Source: Candidatus Levyibacteriota bacterium | GTDB lineage: Bacteria; Patescibacteriota; Microgenomatia; Levybacterales; UBA12049 | Length of the DNA stretch: 64,000 bases | Reading direction: 5' to 3' | NCBI GenBank assembly: GCA_041906785.1 | Contig: JAYRIM010000014.1 | Span: 3,215 to 67,214 of the forward strand | Shown: one piece after another, positions 2,883 to 61,600 of the stretch | Layout: each line of letters begins with the position of its first letter | Numbering within the stretch: the first letter of the stretch is position 1 | Notes under the pieces: generated by a model | Seen by the model: the letters and a program-made list of their open reading frames with translations, nothing else | Told to the model about the DNA's origin: nothing | The model's database searches: none | Made by a program: the position numbers and the translations under genes

Positions 2883-2971
2883 TTTTTTTCTCTTTCATAT
2901 CTATTACAGGGTTTTTAAGCGTATTTAACGCCATAAAGGTATTATTTCCATATAAACGGAGGATATTCTGT

Positions 2972-3772
2972 ATGGTAAGAAAAAAACAAGTGGTTGGCTT
3001 AAAAATGATCAGTTTACAAGATGGGAAAGAAGTTGGGGAAGTAAAAGATGTGATATATGATCCTAAAAAGAAAAAAGTTGAAGCTCTTATAGCTGAAGAA
3101 AAAGGAATTGTTAAAGGATCAAAAGTCGTTCCATTAGATGAAGTTCATACAATCGGCGATGATGCAGTAACTATCGATTCTGAAGAGCGAATGAAACCCT
3201 TATCGAAAGCGCCAGAGCCAGTAACTAAAGCAGCGAAGTTAAGCCAGAAGGTTGAAGAAACAACAATTGTGACTACTGATGGAAAAGAACTGGGAAATAT
3301 AAAAGATGTGTATTTTAATCCTTTAACAGGTGAAGTTGAAGAGTTTGAAATGCTTAAGGTTAACGAGAAAGGAGGCAAATCAAAAAAAAAGAAAGTCATC
3401 CTTTCTGAGGTATTAACAATTGGTGAAGAAGTTACAGTAGTACGAGGATATGGAGAAAATATTTTTCCTTCTCAGTCCGAGGATGTTTCTCAAACAAAAA
3501 AGAACAATCTATTAGAAGGTACTGACACATCGATAACCACTATTAAAAATTTTGAGAGTCTTGTAAATAAATCTCACGATATACAACCCCACTTCACAGA
3601 AGAAGATAAAAAACTTTATGAAAAAATTGTCGCTCCTAGTACAGCTTCTAGTAGTTCTTCTCTTCAAACTTCATCAGGAAAGGGAATTTGGAGAACATTC
3701 CATGATTGGCTAATCGGTCCTACAATTCAAGAGGCTATCAGTCAAATAACAGGCATTCCAAGAAAAATATAA
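2972..3772 (+). CDS. PRC-barrel domain protein (two PRC-like repeats)
   Basis: Repeated ...DGKEVGEVKDVIYDPKKKKVEALI... / ...DGKELGNIKDVYFNPLTGEVEEFEM... motifs; start moved to ATG 2972 which has a GGAGG RBS; the upstream part of the six-frame ORF 2822..2971 is translation of a repeat element. Confidence 0.5.
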   Translation: MVRKKQVVGLKMISLQDGKEVGEVKDVIYDPKKKKVEALIAEEKGIVKGSKVVPLDEVHTIGDDAVTIDSEERMKPLSKAPEPVTKAAKLSQKVEETTIVTTDGKELGNIKDVYFNPLTGEVEEFEMLKVNEKGGKSKKKKVILSEVLTIGEEVTVVRGYGENIFPSQSEDVSQTKKNNLLEGTDTSITTIKNFESLVNKSHDIQPHFTEEDKKLYEKIVAPSTASSSSSLQTSSGKGIWRTFHDWLIGPTIQEAISQITGIPRKI

Positions 3773-3880
3773 CCTGAGCAGCCACGTCCGTCGGTGTAAA
3801 TATTTGTTTTTACGTTAACCTGACCATTCGCTTAAAAGCGAAGACTTTCTCCTGAAAGGAGAATTTTATTAGGAGATTTG

Positions 3881-5035
3881 CTATTTTATTGGTAGTTCTA
3901 CAGTAAATTCTGATCCTTTATTTTCTTTGCTTTTAATCCGTATTTTTCCTCCATGGGCTATGACTATTTGATTTGATATATATAAGCCAATTCCTAATCC
4001 TTTAATATCACCATTTTGTCCGCCTCTCTCAAATAGGTTAAAGATTTTTTCCTGTTGGTTCTTCGGTATTCCCAATCCTTGATCCTTAACACTAATTCTA
4101 GCGACTGAACCTTCTTTCTGCAGGGAAACATGTATTGGTTTTCCCTGACCGTATTTCATCGCGTTTGAAATAAGATTTGCAATAACTTGCTCAATACGGA
4201 CCCTATCAACTTTCACAACTATTGAAGTTTTTGCATCAGATGTAATTTTCGTATGCTCATTTTCAGCTTTTTCTATAAAACGTTTGACGACATCTTGCAT
4301 GATTTCTTTTAAATCATGCTTATCCAATTCAAGTTCTAATCGACCTGTTCTCATTAATGAAACATTTAATAAATCATTTATCATTTTCGATAGCCGTTTG
4401 GTTTGGGTCTCAGCACTTTCTAACATATCCAGAAGGTTTTGGACAGAAAAATTTGCTAGTGAAACGTGACGGACATTATGTAATGCTGTTTGTAATTTTA
4501 ATAGCGTGGTAGTTAGTGGTGTTTTTAATTCGTGAGATGCTATTGATATGAATTCATCTCTAGCTCGAATTTCCTTTTCTGCTTGTCTTTTTTCACGTAT
4601 GAGACGTTCGATTTCTTCTTCAAATTCTTTTTCTCTTTTATTAAATAACGAAATTAATTTCGTTTTTTTACTGGTTGAAATAATCCATGTAATCACAAAT
4701 CCTGTGATTGAAAACACAATTAGTTCTATAATTGCCAGTATAGTTGTGTTTAAAAGAGGATAAGAAAAAAGTATCAAAAAAATTATTGCGTATATTGTTA
4801 GAAATATGCCAGTTTTTTTATTTCCTAAAAATGTAGCAAAAGCGATTGAAATAAGAAAAAGAAGTAAGAGTAGGTGATAAAACTGAATTTCTCTAAAAAC
4901 CGAACTGATAATTACCATAAATATACTAATGAAGAGAGTGAAACCGTATTGGAAAAGATAGCTATCAAACTTTTCACGAGGAAACCAAATATATGAGGAG
5001 AAATATTTTTGGATGGTATTTTCTTTTTTTACCAT
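3881..5035 (-). CDS. membrane sensor histidine kinase
   Basis: Multi-TM N-terminus, H-box SIASHELKTPLTT, HATPase_c G-boxes (GLGIGLYISNQIV). Confidence 0.8.
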   Translation of the reverse strand: MVKKENTIQKYFSSYIWFPREKFDSYLFQYGFTLFISIFMVIISSVFREIQFYHLLLLLFLISIAFATFLGNKKTGIFLTIYAIIFLILFSYPLLNTTILAIIELIVFSITGFVITWIISTSKKTKLISLFNKREKEFEEEIERLIREKRQAEKEIRARDEFISIASHELKTPLTTTLLKLQTALHNVRHVSLANFSVQNLLDMLESAETQTKRLSKMINDLLNVSLMRTGRLELELDKHDLKEIMQDVVKRFIEKAENEHTKITSDAKTSIVVKVDRVRIEQVIANLISNAMKYGQGKPIHVSLQKEGSVARISVKDQGLGIPKNQQEKIFNLFERGGQNGDIKGLGIGLYISNQIVIAHGGKIRIKSKENKGSEFTVELPIK

Positions 5036-9728: not shown

Positions 9729-9828
9729 TCTCTCATAGGTTACTTAAGTAAATTAGGTAAGTTGAAATACTTCCTTTTTCGTAACTACTTTACAAAGTAA
9801 AGTTATTGAGATACACTTTTGAAGTTAC

Positions 9829-10779
9829 ATGTTACAAGTTATGAGAGCAGCACAAATACAGAATTACGGTGGGCCTGAAAGTATTACTATTACAGATACT
9901 GTAGAAAAGCCTTCATTAAAGCCAGGACAGATTCTTGTAGAAGTTCATGCATCGGCATTAAATCCATTCGATTCAAAACTTCGTTCTGGAGTATATAAAG
10001 AGATGATACCGCTCCAGTTTCCTTTTATACTTGGTGGAGATTTTTCCGGTGTGATAAATGAAATAGGAGAAGGGGTAACAGAGTATGCTCTGGGAGATGA
10101 AGTATTCGGCACAGCACTAGGTCTAACTGGTGGATCGGGAGCATTTGCAGAGTTTGCGACAGCGAACACAAAAAATATTTCAAAAAAACCAACAAATGTA
10201 TCTCATGTTGAAGCTGCAGCGCTAGTGCTGGTTGGAGTAAGCGCAATCCAAGCTATTGAACAACATATCAACTTGCAACCTAAGCAGCGAATTCTTCTTC
10301 ATGGTGGAGCGGGAGGTATTGGATCCGTTGCTATTCAATTAGCGAAGTCGAAAGGAGCTTATGTTGCTACTACTGTAAGTTTAGACAGTAAATCATTTGT
10401 TCAGCAGTTAGGAGCAGATGAAGTGATTGATTATAAGAATCAGAAATTTGAAGAACTGCTACACGATTATGATGCCGTGTATGATACTGTAGGTGGAGAT
10501 ACAACTGATCGGTCTTTTGCAGTTTTAAAAAGAGGTGGTGTGATTGTGTCAATGCTTGGGAAACCGAATCAGGAGCGGGCGAAAGAACTCGGTATAACTG
10601 CCATTGGCCAAATGACAAACACAAATGCAGAACATCTTTCTCGACTGAAAACATTGATTGAAACAAATGTGATTAAACCCCAGATTGATAAAACATTTCC
10701 ATTTTTTCAAGTGAGAGAATCTTTTACATACTTAGAGACAGGTCATCCTCGAGGGAAGGTTGTCCTCACTGTAAGATAA
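9829..10779 (+). CDS. NADPH:quinone oxidoreductase / Zn-independent MDR alcohol dehydrogenase family
   Basis: HASALNPFDSKLRSG, GGAGGIGSVAIQLAK Rossmann motif, typical MDR length. Confidence 0.75.
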   Translation: MLQVMRAAQIQNYGGPESITITDTVEKPSLKPGQILVEVHASALNPFDSKLRSGVYKEMIPLQFPFILGGDFSGVINEIGEGVTEYALGDEVFGTALGLTGGSGAFAEFATANTKNISKKPTNVSHVEAAALVLVGVSAIQAIEQHINLQPKQRILLHGGAGGIGSVAIQLAKSKGAYVATTVSLDSKSFVQQLGADEVIDYKNQKFEELLHDYDAVYDTVGGDTTDRSFAVLKRGGVIVSMLGKPNQERAKELGITAIGQMTNTNAEHLSRLKTLIETNVIKPQIDKTFPFFQVRESFTYLETGHPRGKVVLTVR

Positions 10780-12727: not shown

Positions 12728-12902
12728 AGAAAATTAAGTTCAACAGATATATTATAGGATGTCAATGTAATGCATAAAAAGTAGAGTTTTATACAAATTA
12801 TTTATTAGTAGAAAAAAGTACATATCAGGTATTAAATTGGAAATTACTAACTGCTTTTTTTATAAAATTTTCAGCTGATTTTCAGCTCTCCTGGTATAAT
12901 CT

Positions 12903-14745: not shown

Positions 14746-15309
14746 ATGGCCGCATACCATTTCGTCAGCGATACACACCAACGATTAAAGGTGCTTATTA
14801 TTGAGCGTTTACCATGGTTGCTTTTGGGATTAGTAGGTGGGACAGCTGCTTCATTCCTCGTATCTCATTTCGAAGAAATTCTCCAGCAGAATATTCAGCT
14901 CGCATTTTTCGTTCCTATGATCGTCTATATGTCAGATGCAGTAGGGACACAAACAGAAACAATTTTCGTTAGAGATCTTACAGAACACAGAGCGAATTTT
15001 TATAAGTATTTATGGAAGGAATTTTATATTGGTTTATCATTGGGGGTTATTTTGGGTGTACTTATTGGTTTGATTGCATATCTGTGGCTTCGTGATAGTT
15101 TAATTGCCTTAACTGTTGGAGTCGCTATGCTTGTAAATGTCGCTATCGCACCTATGCTTGCGATTATAATCCCAGAAGCATTATTTAAAGAGCACCGGGA
15201 TCCTGCATTAGGTGCGGGTCCGTTTACGACAGTCGTTCAAGACTTTGTCAGTTTACTCGTGTATTTTGTGGTGGCGACAGTTATTATCTGGCATAGAGTT
15301 ATTTTTTAA
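14746..15309 (+). CDS. MgtE-type divalent cation transporter membrane domain protein
   Basis: MIVYMSDAVGTQTETIF motif and 5 TM helices characteristic of the MgtE C-terminal domain; no CBS/N domain. Confidence 0.5.
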   Translation: MAAYHFVSDTHQRLKVLIIERLPWLLLGLVGGTAASFLVSHFEEILQQNIQLAFFVPMIVYMSDAVGTQTETIFVRDLTEHRANFYKYLWKEFYIGLSLGVILGVLIGLIAYLWLRDSLIALTVGVAMLVNVAIAPMLAIIIPEALFKEHRDPALGAGPFTTVVQDFVSLLVYFVVATVIIWHRVIF

Positions 15310-15631: not shown

Positions 15632-15864
15632 GCTTTAGTTTAATTCGGGTTCTGTCATTCGTTTGGTATACAGTGCTCGTTCTAGTCTCGCATTTTTTAA
15701 AAATTTAAGGAGGCAGCGAACGAACTGCGCGCTGTATACCTTCACTTCATGCCACCGGAATTTTTATATTTACCTTGAGTATAAAAAAAGAAACAGACTT
15801 TGTCTAATCTATAGTAGGAGATACATATTTTAAGCATTTTTTCAGATAGCTTTTATAGAGTATA

Positions 15865-15956
15865 CATTGGAGAAAGCGAAGACCGCTTTCGCTAAAGCTA
15901 TAGCGACCGAAGAGTGCCTTCGTTAAAACTATGGCACTCGAAGGAGGTGAATAAAT
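15865..15956 (+). promoter_or_regulatory. conserved 5'-leader hairpin/anti-RBS element, copy 1 (two tandem CGAAGA..GC.TTCG hairpins)
   Basis: GACCGAAGAGTGCCTTCGTTAAAACTATGGCACTCGAAGGAGGTGA immediately precedes ATG 15957; homologous to 24827-24882 with compensatory changes. Confidence 0.5.
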
Positions 15957-16433
15957 ATGAAGAAGCAATTGTTAGTTCCCATATTAGCAGTGACTACAGC
16001 AGGTACCGTTCTGTTTGGCGTTCATACTCTCTATGCGCAAACTCCTGAGACATCGTCGCTCGTCTCGAGAATAGCACAAAAATTTGGTTTAAAGGAAAGT
16101 GATGTTCAGTCAGTTTTCGATGAGTATCGAGATGAGCGTCATAAAGAAATGGAAGCGCGCTTTGAAGATAAACTGACTCAAGATGTAACAGATGGAAAGA
16201 TCACAGAATCGCAAAAACAGGCTATTTTATCGAAAATGAAAGAGCTGCAAGAGAAGAAACAATCGAACATCGATGCATGGAAAGATATGACTCCTGAGCA
16301 GCGAAGAGATGCGATGAAGAAAGAACGTGATGAACTAAAGAAGTGGGCAGATGATCAAGGAATTGATCTAAGCCTCATACATTTCGGGATGAAAGTTCAC
16401 GGAATGAGAATGATGGGTAAAATGATGAATTAA
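15957..16433 (+). CDS. secreted hypothetical protein (signal peptide, charged helical body)
   Basis: N-terminal signal-peptide-like MKKQLLVPILAVTTAGTVLFGVHTLYAQT; strong RBS; terminator downstream. Confidence 0.5.
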   Translation: MKKQLLVPILAVTTAGTVLFGVHTLYAQTPETSSLVSRIAQKFGLKESDVQSVFDEYRDERHKEMEARFEDKLTQDVTDGKITESQKQAILSKMKELQEKKQSNIDAWKDMTPEQRRDAMKKERDELKKWADDQGIDLSLIHFGMKVHGMRMMGKMMN

Positions 16434-16804: not shown

Positions 16805-17184
16805 AGTACTTCTGGTAGGGGTTGGTCTTTTGGGATAAATTTGATTGATAGAGAATTTACACAGTGACGTGTGTTCTTATCTGTTAAATATTCACCCCCG
16901 AACACATGGCCGAGGTGGCCTCCACAATTCGCGCATTGGATCTCAGTTCTTCGTCCGTCTAGATCAGCTAAACGTTTTACTGCATCGGGAAAATTTTCAT
17001 CGAACGCTGGCCAGCCGCAATGAGCTTCGAACTTGGCCTTCGATGAAAAAAGAGGATTATTACATTGTCTACAGATAAATGTACCGTCGACAAAGAAGTT
17101 ATCATATTCACCAGAGAAAGGAGGCTCTGTGCCTTTGCCTTTTACTACCATCATTTCTTCCTGGTTCAGTTTGTTATATGGCAT
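16795..17184 (-). CDS. msrB: peptide-methionine (R)-S-oxide reductase MsrB (cytoplasmic copy)
   Basis: CxxC...CxxC zinc site, CGWPAF, RTEIQCANCGGHLGHVF. Confidence 0.85.
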   Translation of the reverse strand: MPYNKLNQEEMMVVKGKGTEPPFSGEYDNFFVDGTFICRQCNNPLFSSKAKFEAHCGWPAFDENFPDAVKRLADLDGRRTEIQCANCGGHLGHVFGGEYLTDKNTRHCVNSLSIKFIPKDQPLPEVLHE

Positions 17185-17189
17185 AAAGA

Positions 17190-17549
17190 TTAAGCGACAG
17201 TGGAAATACTAAGTTGTTTTTCTATTCGGCCCAGGCGTTTCCGTTGATCCATTTGTTCTCGGTCGAGCAAATCAAGCATACTATCTTGGTCCTTTTTTAG
17301 TGATTTCAACATTTTACTGTGACCTTCAAGCGTTCTGGTATGACCTTCAAGTATTCTGGTGTGACTTTCCAATATTCTCGTATGACTTTCAAGTGTTCTT
17401 GTATGGCTTTCAAGTAACTTAGTATGGTTTCCAAGGATTTTAGTATGACTTTCAAGAATTTTTCCATGATTTTCTAGCTGTTTATGAATAGGCGCTAATT
17501 TTTCGTCAAGTAATTCTGAAATTTGTTGGAGATCATTGGTGTTTCTCAT
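17190..17549 (-). CDS. coiled-coil protein with ~7-8 tandem heptad repeats (LESHTRI)
   Basis: Protein contains ILESHTKILGNHTKLLESHTRTLESHTRILESHTRILEGHTRTLEGHSKML; the DNA has a 21-nt tandem repeat. Confidence 0.5.
   Translation of the reverse strand: MRNTNDLQQISELLDEKLAPIHKQLENHGKILESHTKILGNHTKLLESHTRTLESHTRILESHTRILEGHTRTLEGHSKMLKSLKKDQDSMLDLLDREQMDQRKRLGRIEKQLSISTVA
17305..17470. repeat. intragenic 21-nt tandem repeat (~7-8 units) encoding LESHTRI heptads
   Basis: ttcaagtattctggtgtgactttccaatattctcgtatgactttcaagtgttcttgtatggctttcaag... Confidence 0.75.
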
Positions 17550-22414: not shown

Positions 22415-22453
22415 TTTTTCTTCTTACTTTTGTTGGCAAAAGTAACAAAACCA

Positions 22454-22536
22454 GTGAGCTAGTGAGAAAATGAGCTAAAATTGTTTCATTCTGACACTCA
22501 TTCAACAATTTCTTCACGCATTTTCTCAACGCTCAC
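22454..22536. repeat. MITE-like element, family 1, copy B (83 nt)
   Basis: Same ~19-bp terminal inverted repeats and internal sequence as 976-1116. Confidence 0.6.
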
Positions 22537-22676
22537 AGATATAATTGTTTTTGTAATAGTCCTGTAGTATAATCCTCTGGCTTATCTGTATCTTATAGAT
22601 TTTATCTAAAAAGATTGCTTTTAAGCGCACTTTTACAAGCTAGTGCGTATTACGTGGCCGTTAGGAATATAGTTAT

Positions 22677-22702
22677 GAGTTGTCAGTTGTCGGCTGTCAG
22701 TT
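22677..22702. repeat. CAGTTnTC(A/G)G decamer-family repeat, short intergenic copy
   Basis: GAGTTGTCAGTTGTCGGCTGTCAGTT. Confidence 0.5.
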
Positions 22703-22709
22703 AAGACAA

Positions 22710-23715: not shown

Positions 23716-24777
23716 TTACTTCTTCTCGCCCTCTTCATTTTTATGGAGTTCTCCATCTTCACGAAGAAATTTTATAATACTTGGAATACTGGCAGCAGTC
23801 GGAAGTGCTAGGAATGCGCCAATAACGCCGAATAACGATGCGCCGATAATAAGTGCTATAAATCCGAGAGCTGGAGATATGTGTAACGCTTTATTATAAA
23901 TAGTCGGCGCGAGAATTCCCCCTTCGATTTGTTGATAAATCAGATAGAGTAACGCTATTAATAGAGCAGTAAACGGTGAAATACTTAACCCAATTAAAAT
24001 TGCAGGAATCATCGCGAGTGTTAATCCCACAAGCGGAAATAAATCGAGGAGTGCAGTGAAAATAGCTAAAGGTGCTGCGAAGGGAATATTCATAAGCGTT
24101 AGTCCGATAAAGATAGTTAAACCGCAAAATGTTGAAATAAATAATCCACCTCGAACATATTGTCCATTCACATGAGCGAGTTCATGGAGTAATCGTGCGA
24201 TTCGTTTTTGTCGCGGGCTGGGAAGAACAGAGAGAAACATCTCTACTAATCGTTTTCCATCCAGAAGGAAATAAAATGTTAAGAAAAATAATGTTAGTAA
24301 AGAAGTAAAAATACTTGTAATAAATGTTGTCGATAATAAAACGTAACTGGCTGCATTTTCGGCATACTGTGAAAGATCTACTTTTCTCGCTGCAGGTGGA
24401 ATAATAGGAGACTTATTTAATAACCCATCAATAGTTGTTAATACATCCGGGAGTTGATTAATAAAACTCGGAATAATTGTAAGACCAAGAATAATAAAAG
24501 GAATAAGCAGTAGACAAACCACAAGCATCGCTGAAATGATCATGGGAAGATGTTTATCCAGTTTTTTAGCCAAAGGATAGAGTGCAGTTGAAAGCATCGC
24601 CGAAATCAGAATTAGAATGAGTATCGGTAATGCTTTCCATACGAAAAGAAGAATTAACCCGGCAGTGATAATGCGTCCAAGTGCATTCCAACTAAAAGGG
24701 TGTTCGTATTTCTGCATATAAATATTGTACGGTATAAATCTATGTGTTACAACACATCTTGCAAAACGTATTCTCAT
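23716..24777 (-). CDS. AI-2E family transporter (PerM/UPF0118)
   Basis: 8 TM helices with the characteristic AI-2E pattern; true start may be the internal Met (MQKYEH, ~24717). Confidence 0.75.
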   Translation of the reverse strand: MRIRFARCVVTHRFIPYNIYMQKYEHPFSWNALGRIITAGLILLFVWKALPILILILISAMLSTALYPLAKKLDKHLPMIISAMLVVCLLLIPFIILGLTIIPSFINQLPDVLTTIDGLLNKSPIIPPAARKVDLSQYAENAASYVLLSTTFITSIFTSLLTLFFLTFYFLLDGKRLVEMFLSVLPSPRQKRIARLLHELAHVNGQYVRGGLFISTFCGLTIFIGLTLMNIPFAAPLAIFTALLDLFPLVGLTLAMIPAILIGLSISPFTALLIALLYLIYQQIEGGILAPTIYNKALHISPALGFIALIIGASLFGVIGAFLALPTAASIPSIIKFLREDGELHKNEEGEKK

Positions 24778-24826
24778 CCTTCTATAGTAAAGATAGATGA
24801 GTAAATTCGGTCAAACAATATATTCT

Positions 24827-24882
24827 GGGTGACCGAAGACCGCCTTCGTTGAAATTTCGGCGGTCGAGGGAGGTGAGGAGAA
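24827..24882 (+). promoter_or_regulatory. conserved 5'-leader hairpin/anti-RBS element, copy 2
   Basis: GACCGAAGACCGCCTTCGTTGAAATTTCGGCGGTCGAGGGAGGTGA immediately precedes GTG 24883. Confidence 0.5.
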
Positions 24883-25125
24883 GTGGAAGAACAGAGCGTG
24901 CAAAGCAATACTGCGGTTACATCGAAAAGCAATTCTAATCTAGGTTTATTTATTGTTGTTTTTCTGGCAGTCGTGGCTGGGTTTGTGGGAGGTTTTTTCG
25001 TTGCTAGAGACCGCTACATTATGCGAATAGGTGAGATCAGTAGAATGCATATGGAGAAAGCTGTAGCTGTAGATTCATTACGACAGGAACTCCGTGTCTT
25101 AGGAGCAAGTACAAAGGCTAAATAG
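24883..25125 (+). CDS. small membrane protein (GTG start)
   Basis: GTG start after a GAGGGAGGTGAGG RBS; single TM helix; conserved 5' leader shared with 15957 gene. Confidence 0.4.
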   Translation: MEEQSVQSNTAVTSKSNSNLGLFIVVFLAVVAGFVGGFFVARDRYIMRIGEISRMHMEKAVAVDSLRQELRVLGASTKAK

Positions 25126-33669: not shown

Positions 33670-36015
33670 ATGGTGTTTTTTAGAGTTTTTCAGAATTTTT
33701 GTATATTTCTTTTTTGTTTATATTCTTTGTTATTTCTACCTCGATTCGCTTTTGCTGCAAGTCAGGTGGTAACGAATAATAATAATTCAGGAGCAGGGTC
33801 ACTGCGTCAAGCAATTCTTGATATAGAGTCCAGCGGCTCTGATGGAGATACTATTACATTTAATCTCTCTGCAGGAAACGAGACTATTACTATTTCTTCA
33901 CAATTTGCGCTTATTTGGCAAAAGAATTTTACAATTGATGGTGACAATACTGCAGGAAGTGGTACGAATGTGACTATTCAAGTAACTACGCCGGGCAGTT
34001 CTTCATTCAGAATCTTTGAAATACGACCATATAGCGGAACCTATTTATTTAAAAACATGACTTTGTATGGAGGAAACGTTAGTACTGAGTACGGTGGAAC
34101 TATTAAAGTTTACTCTGGTGACAGTACAGGAAACTTAACACTTGATAATGTAATAATTGATGGATCAAAAGCTATGTATGGTGGTTGTGTCTATGCATGG
34201 GGAACAATGGGAACATTAACTATCACAAACAGCACCTTTACCAATTGTCAGGCTACCAATGCATCGCCTTATGGTGGTGGAGCATTATTTATGCGGTCTG
34301 TCGGTACGATAAATATCAGTAGTTCTTCATTTACTAATAACTCAAGCATTTACCAGGGAGGAGGTATCTATATGTTCGATCAAACATTTACTATGGATAA
34401 AATAACGGTTACCGGTAATTCAGCGAGTAACCAAGGTGGAGGAATATATTTAGATGGGGATAATGCTTTAGCAATTGCTACATTAACGAATTCTACCATA
34501 GCAAATAATACCTCTTCGTCTCATGGTGGTGGGCTTCTTTTATATTACGGAAGAGTGCAGATTACGAACAGTACAATAAGTAGTAATACTTCTTCAGGTG
34601 TGGGAGGAGGATTTTATTCGGGATATGGAAGCCCCTATTTAACTAATGTCACACTTGCAAATAATAATTCTACAGGAGGAACAGCTGATGGCGTGTATCA
34701 TGAAGGTGGCTCTACGCTGTATATGAAAAACACGATTCTTGCAAATAACGGTACAGGCTATGATATGACAAATAATGCTACTGTATCAGATAGCGGATAT
34801 AATATTGTAGAAAATTCTTCCGGAAAAACATTTAATGCGACAGGAGATATAGCTGGCAACCAAGCAAATTTGAACCTTGATAGCACACTGGCTGATAATA
34901 GTACTTTAAATGGGACACAAACATTAGCTCTTGCTTCTGGCAGTGTGGCAATTGATGCTGGAAATTCTACGACATATCAGTCAATAACAATACCTTCTAC
35001 AGATCAACGCGGTTTAAGTAGATCAGGAACATTGGATATAGGTGCTTATGAATATGCAGGAGGGGGAAGTACGCCTACTCCCACGCCTACAAATACACCA
35101 ACACCTACACCGACACCTACAAATACCCCGACGCCCACACCTGCTCCCACAAGCACGCCTACTCCCACGCCCACAAATACTCAAACTCCTACTCCAACAA
35201 ATACCCCTAGTCCTACCTCAACACCTACTCCCACTGTGGTGCAAACTACAAGTACATCTACATCAGAAACTTCTTCAAAAGGAACAGAAACATGTCCTTC
35301 AAGATATGTTGAATGTCCGAATACAGGACCAATATTCCAAAGAGCTCAGTTAGTAACATCAGATGGAGTCTACGCTAGCCATGGACAGTTTTTCCTAAAT
35401 CCGCTTCCAGGCAGTATGGATTTAGTCATAAAGATAGACCAACAGAATACGGTTAACCTTCTAACTAAACAGGTTGATGTGCCAGTGCCTTGGCAGCAGG
35501 GATACAACACAGCCGGAGAAATTTTTTCTTATAATGCTAAGTCAGCGTTTAACGGCTACCCTGTGACGACTATTGATTCTCCTGCGATTATTATCTTACC
35601 ATATGACCCGAATCGTCTGTTCGGTCGCACACCAGATGAATTACGAATAGGGTATTATAACCAAACACTGAAACGATGGGAGATTATTCAGGATAATACA
35701 GTTGTGGATACAGAAAAACATACAGTAGCCAATACGACACGTATAATGACGTATTATGCTGTAGTCTATCCTCGTACGAATATCATTCCGCCTGTTCTGA
35801 AGGCAGCTTCAAAAAAAACAAAAACCCTAGGGGTGAAAACGAAATGTGGAGAATATATAGTGGAAGCTGGAGATTCGTTATGGACTATTGCGGAAGAGTT
35901 TTTAGGAAAAGGGGAAAACTACAAATCAATAAGAGAAAAAAATAAAAAGCAATTTCCTTCCTTAGAGAAATCTACCATGATAAAACCTGGTTGGAAGTTA
36001 CAGGTAGGTTGTTAA
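33670..36015 (+). CDS. secreted right-handed beta-helix (pectate-lyase-like repeat) protein with Pro/Thr linker and C-terminal LysM domain
   Basis: Signal peptide; many NxT/GGG beta-helix rungs; PTPTPTNTPTPTP linker; C-terminal LysM (CGEYIVEAGDSLWTIAEEFLGKGENYKSIREKN). Confidence 0.65.
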   Translation: MVFFRVFQNFCIFLFCLYSLLFLPRFAFAASQVVTNNNNSGAGSLRQAILDIESSGSDGDTITFNLSAGNETITISSQFALIWQKNFTIDGDNTAGSGTNVTIQVTTPGSSSFRIFEIRPYSGTYLFKNMTLYGGNVSTEYGGTIKVYSGDSTGNLTLDNVIIDGSKAMYGGCVYAWGTMGTLTITNSTFTNCQATNASPYGGGALFMRSVGTINISSSSFTNNSSIYQGGGIYMFDQTFTMDKITVTGNSASNQGGGIYLDGDNALAIATLTNSTIANNTSSSHGGGLLLYYGRVQITNSTISSNTSSGVGGGFYSGYGSPYLTNVTLANNNSTGGTADGVYHEGGSTLYMKNTILANNGTGYDMTNNATVSDSGYNIVENSSGKTFNATGDIAGNQANLNLDSTLADNSTLNGTQTLALASGSVAIDAGNSTTYQSITIPSTDQRGLSRSGTLDIGAYEYAGGGSTPTPTPTNTPTPTPTPTNTPTPTPAPTSTPTPTPTNTQTPTPTNTPSPTSTPTPTVVQTTSTSTSETSSKGTETCPSRYVECPNTGPIFQRAQLVTSDGVYASHGQFFLNPLPGSMDLVIKIDQQNTVNLLTKQVDVPVPWQQGYNTAGEIFSYNAKSAFNGYPVTTIDSPAIIILPYDPNRLFGRTPDELRIGYYNQTLKRWEIIQDNTVVDTEKHTVANTTRIMTYYAVVYPRTNIIPPVLKAASKKTKTLGVKTKCGEYIVEAGDSLWTIAEEFLGKGENYKSIREKNKKQFPSLEKSTMIKPGWKLQVGC

Positions 36016-37636: not shown

Positions 37637-38623
37637 CTATTCTATAATCTCATAATAAACACCATTCGTAGTTCCGCGTTTTCTAATAAATCCCGTGTCT
37701 TGTAATTTCTTCAAGTCATACCGAAGAGTTCGTTCATTTATTTTCATGAACCGTCTTCGGATAATATCGAAATTGACAAGCTTATGATCCTTTATAATCT
37801 GCAAGATCTCTGCTCGTCGGGGTAGAAGGTAATCTTCAGCTTCACTTTTTTGTTTCGTCAGAACAATTTTTTTCGCAGCATCAGCAGTTTCAGCAATCGC
37901 ATCAAGCATAAATTCCACATAATCAGTAGCATCTTTTTCAGGTTCTTCAAGTGCTCTGTAATATTTACTTCTATTTTCATCCAAATATTCCTCAACAGGT
38001 AATAATTGTTTCATGCCGTATCCTCCTTTTTCTAGGATTGCTTGGAGGAACAGCCGGCCGACTCTACCGTTTCCATCTAAAAATGGATGAATTTTTTCAA
38101 AGGAATAATGTGCAAGAACAGCTCTAATCGGAATAAATACTTCTTTATCGCTATTTGCATATTTTATTAAACGTTCTATTAATAATGGCACTTGTTTTGG
38201 TGGAGGAGGAAGATAAATAGCAATTCCTGCTGCGTTATATATCGCTTCTGCTTGTTTTCTAAATTGTCCCAGGTTATCTTTATCTGTTAAATTTGCCATA
38301 ACTTTTTCATGCATTTGTAATAGGACAGCTGTACTGATATCTCTGGCACCACGCTCATGAATAAACTGCAAGCCTTTCAGGACATTAAAAACTTCAACTT
38401 TTTTCTGGTCACTAGATGGTTTGTGATTTAACTCTTCTAACGTGAGTGGATTTCCTTCAATTCGGGCTGAATAAAGCGAGCTTTTTAACACAGATACTCT
38501 TCGAATATTTGTTTCTATTTCTGGCGGGATCTGTATTGTATTCACAATTTCCCGCGCTGCTTCTATATGCTGTAATAATTGCGTTATTCGGGGTGTAAGT
38601 GAATATTTAGGTGGAATTAACAT
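37637..38623 (-). CDS. fic: Fic family protein (AMPylator-type) with C-terminal wHTH
   Basis: HPFLDGNGRVGRLF = Fic motif HPFx(D/E)GNGRxxR. Confidence 0.85.
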   Translation of the reverse strand: MLIPPKYSLTPRITQLLQHIEAAREIVNTIQIPPEIETNIRRVSVLKSSLYSARIEGNPLTLEELNHKPSSDQKKVEVFNVLKGLQFIHERGARDISTAVLLQMHEKVMANLTDKDNLGQFRKQAEAIYNAAGIAIYLPPPPKQVPLLIERLIKYANSDKEVFIPIRAVLAHYSFEKIHPFLDGNGRVGRLFLQAILEKGGYGMKQLLPVEEYLDENRSKYYRALEEPEKDATDYVEFMLDAIAETADAAKKIVLTKQKSEAEDYLLPRRAEILQIIKDHKLVNFDIIRRRFMKINERTLRYDLKKLQDTGFIRKRGTTNGVYYEIIE

Positions 38624-38634
38624 ATAATTTTGAA

Positions 38635-38682
38635 GTTACAAGTTACAAGTTACAAGTTACAAGTTACAAGTTACAAGTTATG
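38635..38682. repeat. GTTACAA heptamer microsatellite (~6.5 units) in the fic/rpsF divergent intergenic region
   Basis: gttacaagttacaagttacaagttacaagttacaagttacaagtta. Confidence 0.8.
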
Positions 38683-46057: not shown

Positions 46058-46200
46058 TCAGTTCTCAGTTTTCAGTTGTCGGTTTTCAGATTGCAGTTTA
46101 TCGGTTATTAGTCTTTCAGTTTTTAAATATCTGACAAACTGAAAATGGATAGACTGGTAGCTGACGCTGATAACCGAAAACTGATTACGGATTCTGCCTC
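46057..46200. repeat. CAGTTnTC(A/G)G decamer-family element arranged as a long imperfect palindrome
   Basis: Direct decamer variants (CAGTTCTCAG TTTTCAGTTGTCGG TTTTCAG...) followed by the inverted set (CTGATAACCGAAAACTGA). Confidence 0.55.
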
Positions 46201-47387: not shown

Positions 47388-49070
47388 CTACGTAAGATAT
47401 TGAGAGCTACTCGTATATATTTTTACTATATCTGCATCTGACAATAAACGTATCTTCTTCATGTTTTTCGTGTCCTTAAGATATCGATGGATAATTTTAT
47501 ACATATCGAGGTCAAAAGTATAATTAGTCGATAAATCCGAAGTGCGTAACCCGAAGTTCGAAAAAGAATCTAACTTTGAATTTTGTGCACTTAAAACGTT
47601 TTGATCATTCGGCATTGCTTCGAGTTTCGATAGTATAATTTCTGATGTATCTTCGTTACCTTCTTGATCGATTTTAACACTACCTATAAAGCACCATTTA
47701 TCGATGATAAAATGTTCTGTTATGCCTGTGATTTCATTTTTTTCATCGATAATAATTGGGCCAGTGAATGGCCAAGGTTTTATTTTCGTTTTACTAAATG
47801 CAGTGACGAATCTCGTATTGTAGAACAATGCTGATTCTTTACCAACGCATGCCCCTTTACATTTGTTTAGTCTGTAAGCGAAACAGGCGGTTGACGTTTT
47901 TTCTAGTCCGATTAGTTTCTCACACAATTGATATTCTTTCGAAACATCAGCCAAAAAATTCTTGGCTTGTTTTCTGGATTTAAAGAGGCCTAGTATTGTT
48001 CCTATTTCTCCTGAAGTTATTGTTTGTACAGGAAATAGTTCTATTCCATCATATCCTTTCGTGTTCGTTACTTTTCTTAAAGCGATAAGCTCATGTTTTA
48101 CCCTCAACATCCTATTATAGATAGGAAGTTTTTGCTTTATAAGGGTTGCTTCGAGAAAGAGTGCTCCAAGTTCGCCTGCAGTAACGATAGTTTCAATATG
48201 TTCAACTTGTTGCGCTATAGACATTTCTTTCGTTGATCGAATATCTCCTGAAAAATGTGATAAAACACGATCACGAATGTTTTTACTTTTACCGATATAT
48301 AAAGGAACAGGTTGTAAGTTGTCAGTTCTAGGTTGTGGGTTATCAGTAACAGAACTTTGACTGGTTATTCCATTTACATACTGATGACTGATGACTGACG
48401 ACTGACTACCATACATAATATACACCCCTGGCAATTCGGGAAGAGAATCTATGAGTGACCAAGACAATTTAGTAGGTACGGTTGGTCTTCGTAATGCTAG
48501 ATTTACAGCTTTAAGAAACTCATCTTCAGAAAAGGTTTTTTTTGCATATTGGTAAAAATGCCATAACGCTGACGCATCGTCAAAAGCACGATGTCGCTGT
48601 TCACAGTGAATCCCGCAGCGTTGAATAACAGCATCCAGATTATGATGAGATGCCGTAGGGAAGAGAGAACGAGAAAGTTTCACTGTACAGAGTTGCCTTG
48701 CCTGAAATGGTATATTTTCTCGAAGGAAGGAATGTTTTAAAAAACTATAATCAAATCGTGCATTATGCGCGACAAAAATGCATTCATTGAGAAGTGTGCG
48801 TATTTCATCAGCTACTTCTTGAAATGTAGGTTTATTTTCGAGATCGCGTTGAGTTATACCTGTCAACAGTTCGATTTCAGGAGGGAGATGAGTTTGGGGG
48901 TTAATAAGTGATTGGTATGTCTGTACAAGCTTATTTCCTTCAACTCGGAGAATTCCTATTTCGATAATCCTTCCGTAGGAAGCAGAAGTACCAGTAGTCT
49001 CAATATCGACAAAAGCAAGTCTATCAGGCAGCATGTGTTTGATTTTAACAAGCTTGATTTTGTCCTGCAA
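47388..49070 (-). CDS. DnaQ-like 3'-5' exonuclease fused to a GIY-YIG (UvrC/Cho-like) nuclease domain
   Basis: FVDIETTG exo I motif, HNARFD, later GVYIMYG...LYIGKSKNIRDRVLSHF GIY-YIG motif interrupted by ~28 extra residues. Confidence 0.7.
   Translation of the reverse strand: MQDKIKLVKIKHMLPDRLAFVDIETTGTSASYGRIIEIGILRVEGNKLVQTYQSLINPQTHLPPEIELLTGITQRDLENKPTFQEVADEIRTLLNECIFVAHNARFDYSFLKHSFLRENIPFQARQLCTVKLSRSLFPTASHHNLDAVIQRCGIHCEQRHRAFDDASALWHFYQYAKKTFSEDEFLKAVNLALRRPTVPTKLSWSLIDSLPELPGVYIMYGSQSSVISHQYVNGITSQSSVTDNPQPRTDNLQPVPLYIGKSKNIRDRVLSHFSGDIRSTKEMSIAQQVEHIETIVTAGELGALFLEATLIKQKLPIYNRMLRVKHELIALRKVTNTKGYDGIELFPVQTITSGEIGTILGLFKSRKQAKNFLADVSKEYQLCEKLIGLEKTSTACFAYRLNKCKGACVGKESALFYNTRFVTAFSKTKIKPWPFTGPIIIDEKNEITGITEHFIIDKWCFIGSVKIDQEGNEDTSEIILSKLEAMPNDQNVLSAQNSKLDSFSNFGLRTSDLSTNYTFDLDMYKIIHRYLKDTKNMKKIRLLSDADIVKIYTSSSQYLT
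48311..48410. repeat. decamer-family repeat embedded in frame in the exonuclease/GIY-YIG gene
   Basis: GTTGTCAGTTCTAGGTTGTGGGTTATCAGTAACAG ... CTGATGACTGATGACTGACGACTGAC; encodes the extra residues between the GIY and YIG motifs. Confidence 0.5.
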
Positions 49071-58383: not shown

Positions 58384-59499
58384 CTATAACTCCTTAAAAT
58401 CCCTTGGGGTATCTGTTAACTGTTTAAGTGTATTATTTTCTATTACAAATAAGTCTTCAATTCTCACTCCTCCATAGTTTGGAATATAGATTCCCGGTTC
58501 TATAGAAAACACCATTCCTTCAGTTAGTATTTGTTTTGACACAGGTGAAAGAGTAGGGGCTTCATGAACTTGTAACCCAATACCATGACCTAGAGAATGG
58601 GGGATGGAGGGGTAGTCTTGGGAGAGAATATGATTTCTTGCGGCGGCATCTATATTTGATGCTATTATCTCCTTAGCTCCAGAGTTGTCGGTTATCAGTT
58701 GTCGGTTGTCAGCTAGATGCAAATGAATATAATCAATTGCTTTTTGTTGGGCTTCTCGAACAACATTATATATGCGTTTTTGTTCATCAGTTGCTTTGCC
58801 AAAAAATAGTGTTCTCGTCATATCTGAACAATAAGATTCAACTTTCACGCCAAAATCCAGTAACACCAGGTCGCTAGTCGCAAGTCGTTTGTCGCCTGTT
58901 TGGTGGTGGGGGATGGCGGCGTTTGATCCAAATGCCACAATTGGATCGAACGATAGTTCTGCTCCTTGTTCTAAAATAAAGATTTTCAGTTTTTTTGCTA
59001 ACTCTTTTTCAGTTATACCAGGTTTTATTTTTGTAAGAATGAAATTAAATCCCAAATCTCCAATACGACATGCTTCTGCTATTTTTTCAATTTCTTTATG
59101 TTCTTTCTGGATGCGAAGCGTGTGTAATTCTGCTGGTTTAGTATCAAGTACTATTTCTTGAATTTTCTTTAATTCATAAACAGTTATATCTTTTTCTTCT
59201 ATCCCTAATGTTTGTATATTGTTTTGTTCGCATAATTCAGTAAACACTTTCTGAAACTGATTTGTTGAAGATAGCTCGATAAGCTTTAAATGTCCTAAAG
59301 CATGTATTGCTGTTGTATATCGGCCGTCAGTGAGAACATATGCTTCTTTTGCTGTTATAACGAGATATGCTTCTCGTTCTTCAACAGAAAAGTTTGTATA
59401 TCCACTTAGATACGATATATTCGCAACAGAGGTGATAAGAAACGCATCAAGTTTCTGTTTGTCTAATAAGCGACGAACTTTTTCGATTCTATTATGCAT
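58384..59499 (-). CDS. pepP: Xaa-Pro aminopeptidase (M24B)
   Basis: Pita-bread fold metal ligands ...DFG..., HSLGHGIGLQVHE, C-terminal ...GVRIEDL. Confidence 0.85.
   Translation of the reverse strand: MHNRIEKVRRLLDKQKLDAFLITSVANISYLSGYTNFSVEEREAYLVITAKEAYVLTDGRYTTAIHALGHLKLIELSSTNQFQKVFTELCEQNNIQTLGIEEKDITVYELKKIQEIVLDTKPAELHTLRIQKEHKEIEKIAEACRIGDLGFNFILTKIKPGITEKELAKKLKIFILEQGAELSFDPIVAFGSNAAIPHHQTGDKRLATSDLVLLDFGVKVESYCSDMTRTLFFGKATDEQKRIYNVVREAQQKAIDYIHLHLADNRQLITDNSGAKEIIASNIDAAARNHILSQDYPSIPHSLGHGIGLQVHEAPTLSPVSKQILTEGMVFSIEPGIYIPNYGGVRIEDLFVIENNTLKQLTDTPRDFKEL
58679..58712. repeat. decamer-family repeat embedded in frame in pepP
   Basis: AGTTGTCGGTTATCAGTTGTCGGTTGTCAG encodes ...ADNRQLITDN... 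Confidence 0.45.
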
Positions 59500-60941: not shown

Positions 60942-61469
60942 ATGTACGTTATGGAAATCTCCTTAGTATCTCCACATAGCATCAGAATAAAAAATAGACA
61001 AGGTTCTTTACTGATAAATCCTGGTGGTAAATCTATAGTAGCAAATGGTATTATCATCATGAAAAATGCTTCATTCGACTTGAAAAGCTTGGAGGAAGGA
61101 ACAGTTGTTATCCAAGGTGCTGGAGAATACGAATTTGCTGGAATAAAAATATCAGGTTTTAGAAATGGAGAGGACATTCTGTATAGTATCCGTACAGATA
61201 GAATAGAAATCCTTTTCGGTTCAATTAAAACATTGGAAAAAGATTATGCGAAATTGAAAGAACATCATATCGTTATCGCATTTGCTGATAGTGAGGCGGA
61301 TCCCTCATTTCTTACATCAGTCGCATCAAATGTGATTATATTTGTTGGTGAGAAAGCCGAAGGAACAATCAGTAAAATTGCTAAAGATGGATATAGAAAA
61401 GAATCTAAATACTCTATAACATTTGAAAAATTACCACAGGAGATAGAAGAGATACTACTAACTTCTTGA
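60942..61469 (+). CDS. hypothetical protein (possibly degenerate MBL-fold, UPF0173-like)
   Basis: LLINPGG...VVIQGAGEYEF pattern but no HxHxDH. Confidence 0.35.
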   Translation: MYVMEISLVSPHSIRIKNRQGSLLINPGGKSIVANGIIIMKNASFDLKSLEEGTVVIQGAGEYEFAGIKISGFRNGEDILYSIRTDRIEILFGSIKTLEKDYAKLKEHHIVIAFADSEADPSFLTSVASNVIIFVGEKAEGTISKIAKDGYRKESKYSITFEKLPQEIEEILLTS

Positions 61470-61470
61470 T

Positions 61471-61600
61471 ATTCAGTTATCAGTTTTCGGTTATCAGTTA
61501 TCGGAATTTAGGTCACCAGTTATCAGGTTGCCAGTCTGATAAACAGAAAACCGTTCAACTAGTATCTGAAAACAGACAACTGAAGACTGATAACTGAACT
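61471..61600. repeat. CAGTTnTC(A/G)G decamer-family element (direct then inverted units) upstream of dnaB
   Basis: CAGTTATCAGTTTTCGGTTATCAGTTATCGG ... CTGAAAACAGACAACTGAAGACTGATAACTGAAC. Confidence 0.55.

Follow-up and report, generated by a model that had tools for sequence, protein, structure and literature searches.

Two related leader hairpins, probably structural, beside the Shine-Dalgarno sequences of two unrelated small envelope-protein genes in a CPR genome

The described systems closest to the element reported here are the Shine-Dalgarno (SD)-occluding RNA thermometers (ROSE and fourU) and translational leader hairpins, the stabilizing stem-loops of 5' untranslated regions (5' UTRs), the small, dispersed palindromic repeats found within transcripts (REP/BIME, Correia/CREE elements, and MITEs), and the guanidine-II/mini-ykkC and preQ1-I elements. 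Stabilizing stem-loops are known from the leaders of Escherichia coli ompA and of Bacillus subtilis aprE and ermC, where a stable 5' hairpin combined with a strong SD sequence protects mRNAs from 5'-end-dependent decay.

The element occurs twice in the window, which is the whole 64,000-nucleotide stretch of DNA that was analyzed. Its copies (copy 1 in leader 1 and copy 2 in leader 2) lie immediately 5' of two genes.

15957..16433, plus strand: gene 1, encoding a secreted, all-helical protein of 158 aa from a CPR-specific family.
24883..25125, plus strand: gene 2, an ORF with a GTG start and one hydrophobic helix, encoding an 80-aa single-pass membrane protein.

Compared to ROSE and fourU thermometers and translational leader hairpins, the element is similar in that the base of a 5'-UTR hairpin touches the SD sequence. 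It further resembles them in the internal loops that weaken the lower stem and in its position ahead of stress- or envelope-type genes. It differs from them in lacking a UYGCU or UUUU anti-SD signature, in an SD sequence that lies for the most part beyond the stable stem and that, in one leader of the two, is as accessible as in shuffled sequences, and in having no Rfam match and no conservation in any of the relatives searched. Like the 5'-UTR stabilizers, both leaders combine a strong SD sequence with a hairpin within ~10 nt of the predicted 5' end (a tandem unit, U1, in leader 1 and an 8-bp stem in leader 2), but the covarying hairpin that they share is SD proximal and not 5' terminal. The presence of a short hairpin repeat in more than one intergenic region and its absence from orthologous sites are features shared with REP/BIME, Correia/CREE elements, and MITEs, and this absence suggests a gain by insertion or duplication. 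Unlike those repeats, the element occupies just two loci in the 64 kb. Both copies face the same way and keep an exact register with the SD sequence, and they have no terminal inverted repeats or target-site duplication; the tandem unit points to slippage rather than transposition. Within the 64 kb, a mobile repeat of the MITE or REP type was rejected after inspection and a repeat search. Guanidine-II/mini-ykkC and preQ1-I elements are likewise very small and immediately 5' of the SD sequence, and leader 1 similarly holds tandem hairpins. However, the pentaloops ACCGC and AGUGC are not ACGR tetraloops, an A-rich pseudoknot tail is missing, and the downstream genes do not encode transporters or biosynthetic enzymes for a plausible ligand, with no Rfam match and no phylogenetic spread. 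We class the element broadly among 5'-UTR stem-loops adjoining the SD sequence, as a new member private to the genome at hand.

The reading that we prefer, at a probability of roughly 0.45, is that of a lineage-restricted, structure-maintained 5'-UTR hairpin module that was spread by duplication and may modestly tune translation and/or mRNA stability in cis.

Both downstream products had been described in the initial annotation as small exported or membrane proteins, and inspection agreed, given the signal peptide of gene 1 and the hydrophobic helix of gene 2. The signal peptide is of the Sec type and ends in YAQ. The organism is an uncultivated CPR/Patescibacteria bacterium of the Microgenomates type. 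All gene 1 homologs (n = 51) were from CPR bacteria, in Levy-, Woese-, Roizman-, Gottesman-, and Shapirobacteria-like metagenome-assembled genomes or under other or evidently wrong taxon labels. The only Pfam match of gene 1 was to OmpH (20.8 bits, below the cutoff), no sequence relative was found in the PDB, and the all-alpha AF2 model (pLDDT, 78) had no fold match in the PDB; on these results, assignment as a Spy/CpxP/Skp-like chaperone was not supported. Gene 2 had two distant homologs only and no Pfam match, and an apparent gene 2 paralog at positions 1703 to 1735 was a chance match inside a Nudix-like ORF. A gene with an MgtE domain adjoins the gene 1 locus (positions 14746 to 15309, a short 187-aa form) and also the gene 2 ortholog in locus L050 (positions 2913 to 3896, 327 aa); this adjacency may be a coincidence or may tie small envelope proteins to divalent-cation transport.

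The promoters of the two genes were predicted at the following positions.

15830..15845, plus strand: direct-repeat box TTAAGC-N5-TTCAG (11-bp period), with the same box and distance in orthologs.
15856..15861, plus strand: -10 hexamer TAGAGT of the gene 1 promoter, with a 10-nt spacing from the box that is identical to that in orthologs.
24759..24788, plus strand: sigma-70-type promoter of gene 2, TTGCAA-N18-TATAGT, closely similar to that in L050.

The box at positions 15830 to 15845 is presumed to be the site of the neighboring OmpR-type response regulator and would drive gene 1. A TTAAG[C/T]-N5-T[T/C][C/A]AG box, followed after 10 nt by a TAnAGT -10 hexamer, was found 5' of ~20 gene 1 orthologs, and in L002-L044 the box lies about 60 nt 5' of the match. 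The same box precedes response-regulator genes in L006 (L006:1064) and L016 (L016:2726), and a variant, TTCAGC-N5-TTCAG (positions 12870 to 12885), together with TATAAT, lies 5' of the window's own OmpR-type regulator (positions 12870 to 12900). These boxes look like an autoregulated two-component regulon, in which the gene 1 family of CPR proteins would be the conserved target of the adjacent two-component system. No response-regulator box is present 5' of gene 2, where the promoter is an ordinary TTGCAA-N18-TATAGT.

Based on comparison with orthologous promoters, transcription of gene 1 was predicted to start at about positions 15866 to 15869, which gives a leader of ~90 nt and coincides with the start of the element as placed in the initial annotation. 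The predicted start for gene 2 was at about positions 24795 to 24797 (leader, ~87 nt). Because promoters conserved with orthologs lie upstream, the element is transcribed leader sequence, and both copies are predicted to sit inside 5' UTRs of ~90 nt each. Box and start codon are 111 nt apart in the window, as against a median of 49 nt in the orthologs. No terminator-like site was found in either leader and the neighboring genes are divergent, so the elements are not terminators; an intrinsic terminator or attenuator was also rejected from the sequence after the hairpins, which is GAAGGAGG and contains no T-run. A conserved upstream ORF was rejected as well, as copy 1 contains ATGGCACTCGAAGGAGGTGAATAA (7 codons), with no counterpart in copy 2.

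Alignment of the two leaders was gap free (positions 15901 to 15959 versus 24827 to 24885), and the conserved block comprised positions 15905 to 15950 and 24831 to 24876 (columns 5 to 50 of the pairwise alignment), with the consensus GACCGAAGA[GT/CC]GCCTTCGTT[A/G]AAA[CTAT/TTTC]GGC[AC/GG]TCGA[A/G]GGAGGTGA. Written as a pattern, the element is CGAAGNNNNNCTTCG-N8-24-TCGARGGAGG. The near base-for-base agreement of the leaders, which had been reported from reading the sequence, was confirmed by this alignment, which contains a covarying 7-bp hairpin. The block was divided as follows.

15908..15938, plus strand: unit U2, the core module of copy 1, from alignment, fold, and repeat analysis.
15939..15950, plus strand: CGAAGGAGGTGA, the extended SD sequence of gene 1, which begins with CGAAG like each unit.
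24831..24876, plus strand: copy 2 of the module and its SD sequence (unit U3), from alignment and fold.

In a search of the 64 kb that tolerated up to 3 mismatches, the 5' half of the element (18 specified bases) had no match besides the two leaders (expected by chance, 0.03). The last ~11 shared bases, GAAGGAGGTGA, are an extended SD sequence, which is ubiquitous in the phylum, is expected to be complementary to the 3' tail of 16S rRNA, and is present 5' of nearly all gene 1 orthologs as GAAAGGAGGTGA. Since these ~11 bases are explained by the SD sequence, the informative similarity is reduced to ~38 nt, with 76% identity (24% divergence); judged by sequence, identity of this extent is homology far beyond chance. 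The SD sequence of copy 2, GGAGGTGA, is at positions 24869 to 24876, and the distance from the SD sequence to the start codon (ATG at position 15957 and GTG at position 24883) is identical in both copies. In the minimum free energy (MFE) fold, the first two G residues of CGAAGGAGGTGA pair with C15907-C15908. The upstream flanks and coding sequences of the two loci are unrelated to each other, so the copies did not arise by a segmental gene duplication, which the initial annotation had named as an outcome that would speak against it.

The same annotation had called the element conserved and proposed a covariance-model search of the genome and its relatives; no additional homologs were recovered, an outcome that it had likewise named as speaking against it, and the term did not hold. 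In Rfam 15, the whole window gave 0 matches at the gathering thresholds, and at an E value of ≤10, leader 1 gave none and leader 2 gave only noise (IRES_c-myc at 13.6 bits, with a threshold of 40, and rli32 at 11.3 bits, with a threshold of 100). A covariance model built from both copies (R1) returned the two inputs and SD-only noise from the 64-kb window with filters off, with no third locus, and no further copy from 274 kb of 50 related CPR loci. In the gene 1 orthologs with readable upstream DNA (40 or more), the same promoters are followed by short leaders that lack the element. The closest gene 1 homologs (L002, L074, and L075, with about 50 to 55% identity) have leaders of ~25 nt. The only gene 2 ortholog with readable upstream DNA (L050, 63% identity) also lacks the element, and its promoter (TTGCAA, a 17-nt spacer, and TATAGT) is followed by a leader of ~20 nt. 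Compared to these relatives, the window genome has gained ~65 to 70 nt in both leaders, and the element is an insertion relative to the short orthologous leaders.

A scan of JGI metagenomes with the exact 5' half, GACCGAAGANNGCCTTCGTT, returned 20 matches, 18 in DNA of 49 to 67% GC and 2 in DNA of ~40% GC; none had the 3' half, and all were rejected as chance. Two viral scans gave one chance match and none, respectively, and BLAST searches gave weak partial matches only against phages and nothing against plasmids. A riboswitch or other conserved class of cis-regulatory RNA was rejected, with no recurrence in the window, in the 274 kb of relatives, or in orthologs. Within the sequences searched, the element appears private to the genome at hand. 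Orthologs whose leaders exceed the usual ~25 nt (L020/L025, L026, L038, L004/L009, L018, and L042) each have a different, unrelated stable hairpin that stops a few bases short of the SD sequence. Such hairpins, acquired independently in six other ortholog lineages, suggest that the gain of a hairpin in the gene 1 leader is a recurrent solution and lend circumstantial support to a functional theme.

The initial annotation had noted an additional hairpin upstream of copy 1. This hairpin, AGCGAAGACCGCTTTCGCT (positions 15875 to 15893), is present, but it is not a separate feature; it belongs to a degenerate duplicate of the 31-nt module.

15877..15907, plus strand: unit U1, a degenerate upstream copy of the module and a 31-nt direct repeat of U2.

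Units U1 and U2 are arranged head to tail and are identical at 22 of 31 positions (71%). They were detected by a separate repeat search, the 31-nt tandem unit being below the threshold of TRF at this divergence. U1 folds as an extended 7-bp form of a hairpin termed hairpin A (AGCGAAG-ACCGC-TTTCGCT, positions 15875 to 15893), and the core of this hairpin, CGAAGACCGCTTTCG, is identical to the copy 2 core at 14 of 15 positions. The sequence CGAAG recurs at positions 15877, 15908, and 15939, the last being the start of the SD block, so that the head-to-tail units are bounded by short direct repeats, as in a tandem duplication. Slippage between the CGAAG repeats would explain this arrangement.

Folding of the leaders placed a 7-bp GC-rich helix, stem B, in both copies. 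In copy 1 it is GAGTGCC/GGCACTC (positions 15912 to 15918 and 15933 to 15939), and in copy 2 it is GACCGCC/GGCGGTC (positions 24838 to 24844 and 24859 to 24865), with two adjacent pairs changed on both sides between the copies. The helix was predicted by RNAfold and by RNAalifold; the latter returned exactly stem B, with 2 pairs changed on both sides, and thereby verified the central stem and the two fully compensatory pairs that had been read from the sequence. The fold of leader 1 had a z score of -3.8 relative to shuffles. Both full copies preserve intact hairpin A (positions 15908 to 15912 and 15918 to 15922 in copy 1 and 24834 to 24838 and 24844 to 24848 in copy 2), stem B, and a lower helix. 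One further stem was specific to copy 2, where it sequesters the module's 5' flank.

24806..24837, plus strand: copy-2-specific 8-bp stem, TTCGGTCA (24806 to 24813) paired with TGACCGAA (24830 to 24837), from MFE folds.

Unit U1 breaks 2 of the 7 stem B pairs and adds a third double-sided change (C-G to U-A) in this stem. In the three-unit alignment, 3 pairs were changed on both sides, a number reached by 18 of 500 column shuffles, while slid-register controls had 0 to 1 double-sided changes each; this covariation comes from three related sequences of one genome, with the stem picked post hoc. When 9 random substitutions were simulated over the 38 nt, 3.9% of trials left the stem unbroken, and 0.17% left it unbroken and also yielded at least 2 compensatory pairs (P ~ 0.002), again for a stem picked post hoc. 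The initial annotation had argued from the compensatory changes for selection on RNA structure. That argument applies to stem B; the A helix and the anti-SD helix described below (C) never vary between the copies, so covariation backs stem B alone. The evidence for selection on structure is suggestive but thin, given three related sequences from one genome, a stem chosen post hoc, and the possibility of template switching.

Template switching in DNA quasi-palindromes creates and maintains hairpins and can leave adjacent compensatory changes without selection (PMC8794818). An alternative explanation is a functionless, neutrally duplicated quasi-palindrome, which would have been formed by tandem slippage and carried into the second leader by illegitimate recombination or gene conversion, with its compensatory changes left by intrastrand template switching. 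The changed pairs are adjacent, as would be expected from a single templated event, the tandem 31-nt unit is bordered by CGAAG direct repeats, and other short dispersed repeats are present in the genome. The absence of conservation outside the genome at hand (Rfam, R1, metagenome, viral, phage, and plasmid searches) and the function of orthologs with ~25-nt leaders are also consistent with neutrality. However, both full copies keep stem B, the lower helix, and hairpin A unbroken despite 24% divergence outside the SD sequence (the 3.9% chance simulated above is that of an intact stem), and the copies share their orientation and their exact distance to the SD sequence and start codon. CPR genomes are, moreover, small and compact. 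On balance, a neutral origin of the element is considered unlikely, though it is to be taken seriously.

Other repeats were observed in the window. Two intergenic segments (positions 969 to 1130 and 22447 to 22550) have ~105 nt in common, ~90% identical and divided into two blocks, between which the first copy has a 58-nt insertion; their outer arms, GTGAGCTAGTGAGAAAAT and ATTTTCTCAACGCTCAC, are inverted repeats, and the segments, which had no Rfam match, may be MITE-like or a structured noncoding RNA. Dispersed arrays with a 7-nt period were found at positions 22671 to 22703, 46060 to 46092, 48310 to 48342, 58683 to 58715, and 61468 to 61514, as well as at 9798 to 9841 and 38609 to 38680, with (GTTGTCA/GTTATCA) repeated 4 to 5 times in one family and (AAGTTAC)n in the other. 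Repeats in tandem, with a period of 21 nt (positions 17304 to 17471), lie inside an ORF on the minus strand (positions 17190 to 17549), and repeats at positions 35067 to 35258, with start-to-start spacings of 12 to 30 nt (multiples of 6), are apparently coding; both would encode repetitive, possibly surface, proteins.

The leaders had also been interpreted as a translational riboregulator or thermosensor. In that model, CCUUCG has two alternative partners, the upstream CGAAG and the SD-adjacent CGARGG, and the choice between them opens or closes the ribosome-binding site. The CGAAG:CTTCG pairing (hairpin A) and the CCTTCG:CGA(A/G)GG pairing (anti-SD pairing C) are possible and preserved in both copies, as is stem B. 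Predicted energies in copies 1 and 2, respectively, were -4.6 and -4.6 kcal/mol for hairpin A, -7.0 and -6.7 kcal/mol for pairing C, and -12.1 and -12.9 kcal/mol for stem B. The best fold of leader 1 with stem B had an energy of -29.4 kcal/mol, versus -19.3 kcal/mol without stem B and with the SD sequence sequestered, and stem B beat every SD-sequestering alternative by ~10 kcal/mol. The two states of leader 2 were nearly isoenergetic (-26.4 kcal/mol for the best fold with stem B versus -27.3 kcal/mol for the SD-sequestered fold); the sequestering pairing, CGCCUUC:GGAGGUG, was within 1 kcal/mol of the stem B fold, and the MFE structure switched between 45 and 55°C. This near-bistability depends on the extra upstream stem that is absent from copy 1. 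The mutually exclusive pairings claimed for the ribosome-binding site therefore exist, but they are of comparable energy in leader 2 alone, and a bistable translational switch in all members was rejected.

SD accessibility was compared with that of leaders whose upstream sequence had been shuffled. Leader 1, in which the SD sequence is largely outside the stable stem, was at quantiles of 0.39 to 0.55, i.e., no lower than shuffled leaders, and leader 2 was marginally less accessible, at quantiles of 0.07 to 0.08 (below 92 to 93% of shuffles). Between 5 and 55°C, accessibility rose gradually, as for any structure. The ensemble cost of opening GGAGGUGA was 1.5 to 4.9 kcal/mol, which is small beside an 8- to 10-nt SD:anti-SD duplex and, in these models, would fit tuning and not on/off switching. 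By sequence and predicted fold, an RNA thermometer of the ROSE or fourU type was rejected, as there is no U-rich or UYGCU anti-SD motif and the SD sequence of leader 1 has the same accessibility as in shuffles. Pairing of the loop UUCG with the 3' CGAA as an H-type pseudoknot was rejected on geometry, since both linkers would be of zero length. The near-balance and lower accessibility of leader 2 and the preserved pairings favor a switch, but leader 1 sits at the shuffle median with stem B strongly preferred, helices A and C show no covariation, and an Rfam match and sensor-like conservation are lacking. The folding models do not support a shared bistable or thermosensing mechanism, although one may apply to leader 2, and a switch operated by temperature or by a ligand is not thought likely; riboregulation of this kind is considered improbable.

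The same module precedes nonhomologous, functionally related genes with different promoters, one regulator dependent and one of the sigma-70 type. This distribution would be expected of a shared operator through which a trans-acting RNA-binding protein or small RNA coregulates two envelope proteins after transcription. The target could be the hairpin, the conserved loop (UUCGUU.AAA), or the repeated CGAAG-N5-CUUCG hairpins. There are three such hairpins, all with A..GC as the spacer pattern, and the three units have the 5' half of the loop in common. On the other side, no antisense partner was found in the window, searches with R1 and with the complement returned only the elements themselves, and no candidate RNA-binding protein was identified. 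The factor would, moreover, need to be as lineage specific as the element, which is absent from relatives. A trans-acting operator is accordingly rated as doubtful at best. In its most elaborate form, the element would be the operator of a CPR-lineage-specific posttranscriptional regulon, in which a trans factor displaces stem B and CCUUC then closes the SD sequence, coupling a constitutive membrane-protein gene to a two-component-controlled secreted protein in an envelope-stress circuit of minimal-genome bacteria; this scenario is speculative, and we hold it to have little chance of being correct.

The palindromes could alternatively act in DNA, with a dimeric transcription factor bound to CGAAG-N5-CTTCG sites downstream of the promoters and blocking transcription. 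Three palindromic sites are present, with a spacing of 31 bp (three helical turns) between two of them, and their position is similar in both leaders (about +40 to +55). This explanation is highly improbable. The similarity between the leaders spans ~46 nt and not just 15, and the compensatory changes link spacer positions with bases outside the palindrome, a link for which a binding site in DNA offers no explanation. The pattern, with up to 1 mismatch, was found 5 times in the window versus 1.35 expected, and two of the matches (positions 17028 and 18019) are outside the leaders, which contain the other 3.

Returning to the cis-acting module, we envisage that a unit of ~31 nt was duplicated twice, once in tandem in the gene 1 leader (U1-U2) and once between unrelated leaders (U2/U3), in each case with or directly next to an extended SD sequence. 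In the mRNA, it would fold into a stable GC-rich hairpin, 7 bp in length and with a loop of 14 nt, that stops 3 nt short of the SD sequence. A weak helix below it (CC:GG, beyond a GAA/GAR internal loop) would touch the first SD bases. We infer that its structure is under selection and that it serves as a cis structural leader element, which would set the local fold beside a very strong SD sequence, with modest tuning of translation initiation and/or protection of the 5' region of the mRNA as the proposed effect. The predicted SD accessibility of leader 1, which is the same as that of shuffles, lends no support to a tuning effect, and the occurrence of two loci and one degenerate tandem unit, all in one genome, argues against the reading as a module. 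The element is real and probably structural.

To our knowledge, regulation in CPR/Patescibacteria is almost unknown. If the hairpin is functional, it would be among very few candidate posttranscriptional control elements described in these bacteria, and it would show that a leader cassette of hairpin and SD sequence can be copied between unrelated genes. On present evidence, it is a genome-specific element with a modest predicted effect, and it serves as a caution that compensatory changes between two copies are not enough to establish a conserved riboregulator. The promoter box may be more useful, as it links a CPR two-component system both with its own operon and, across about 20 genomes, with a conserved secreted helical protein, which together constitute a testable regulon.
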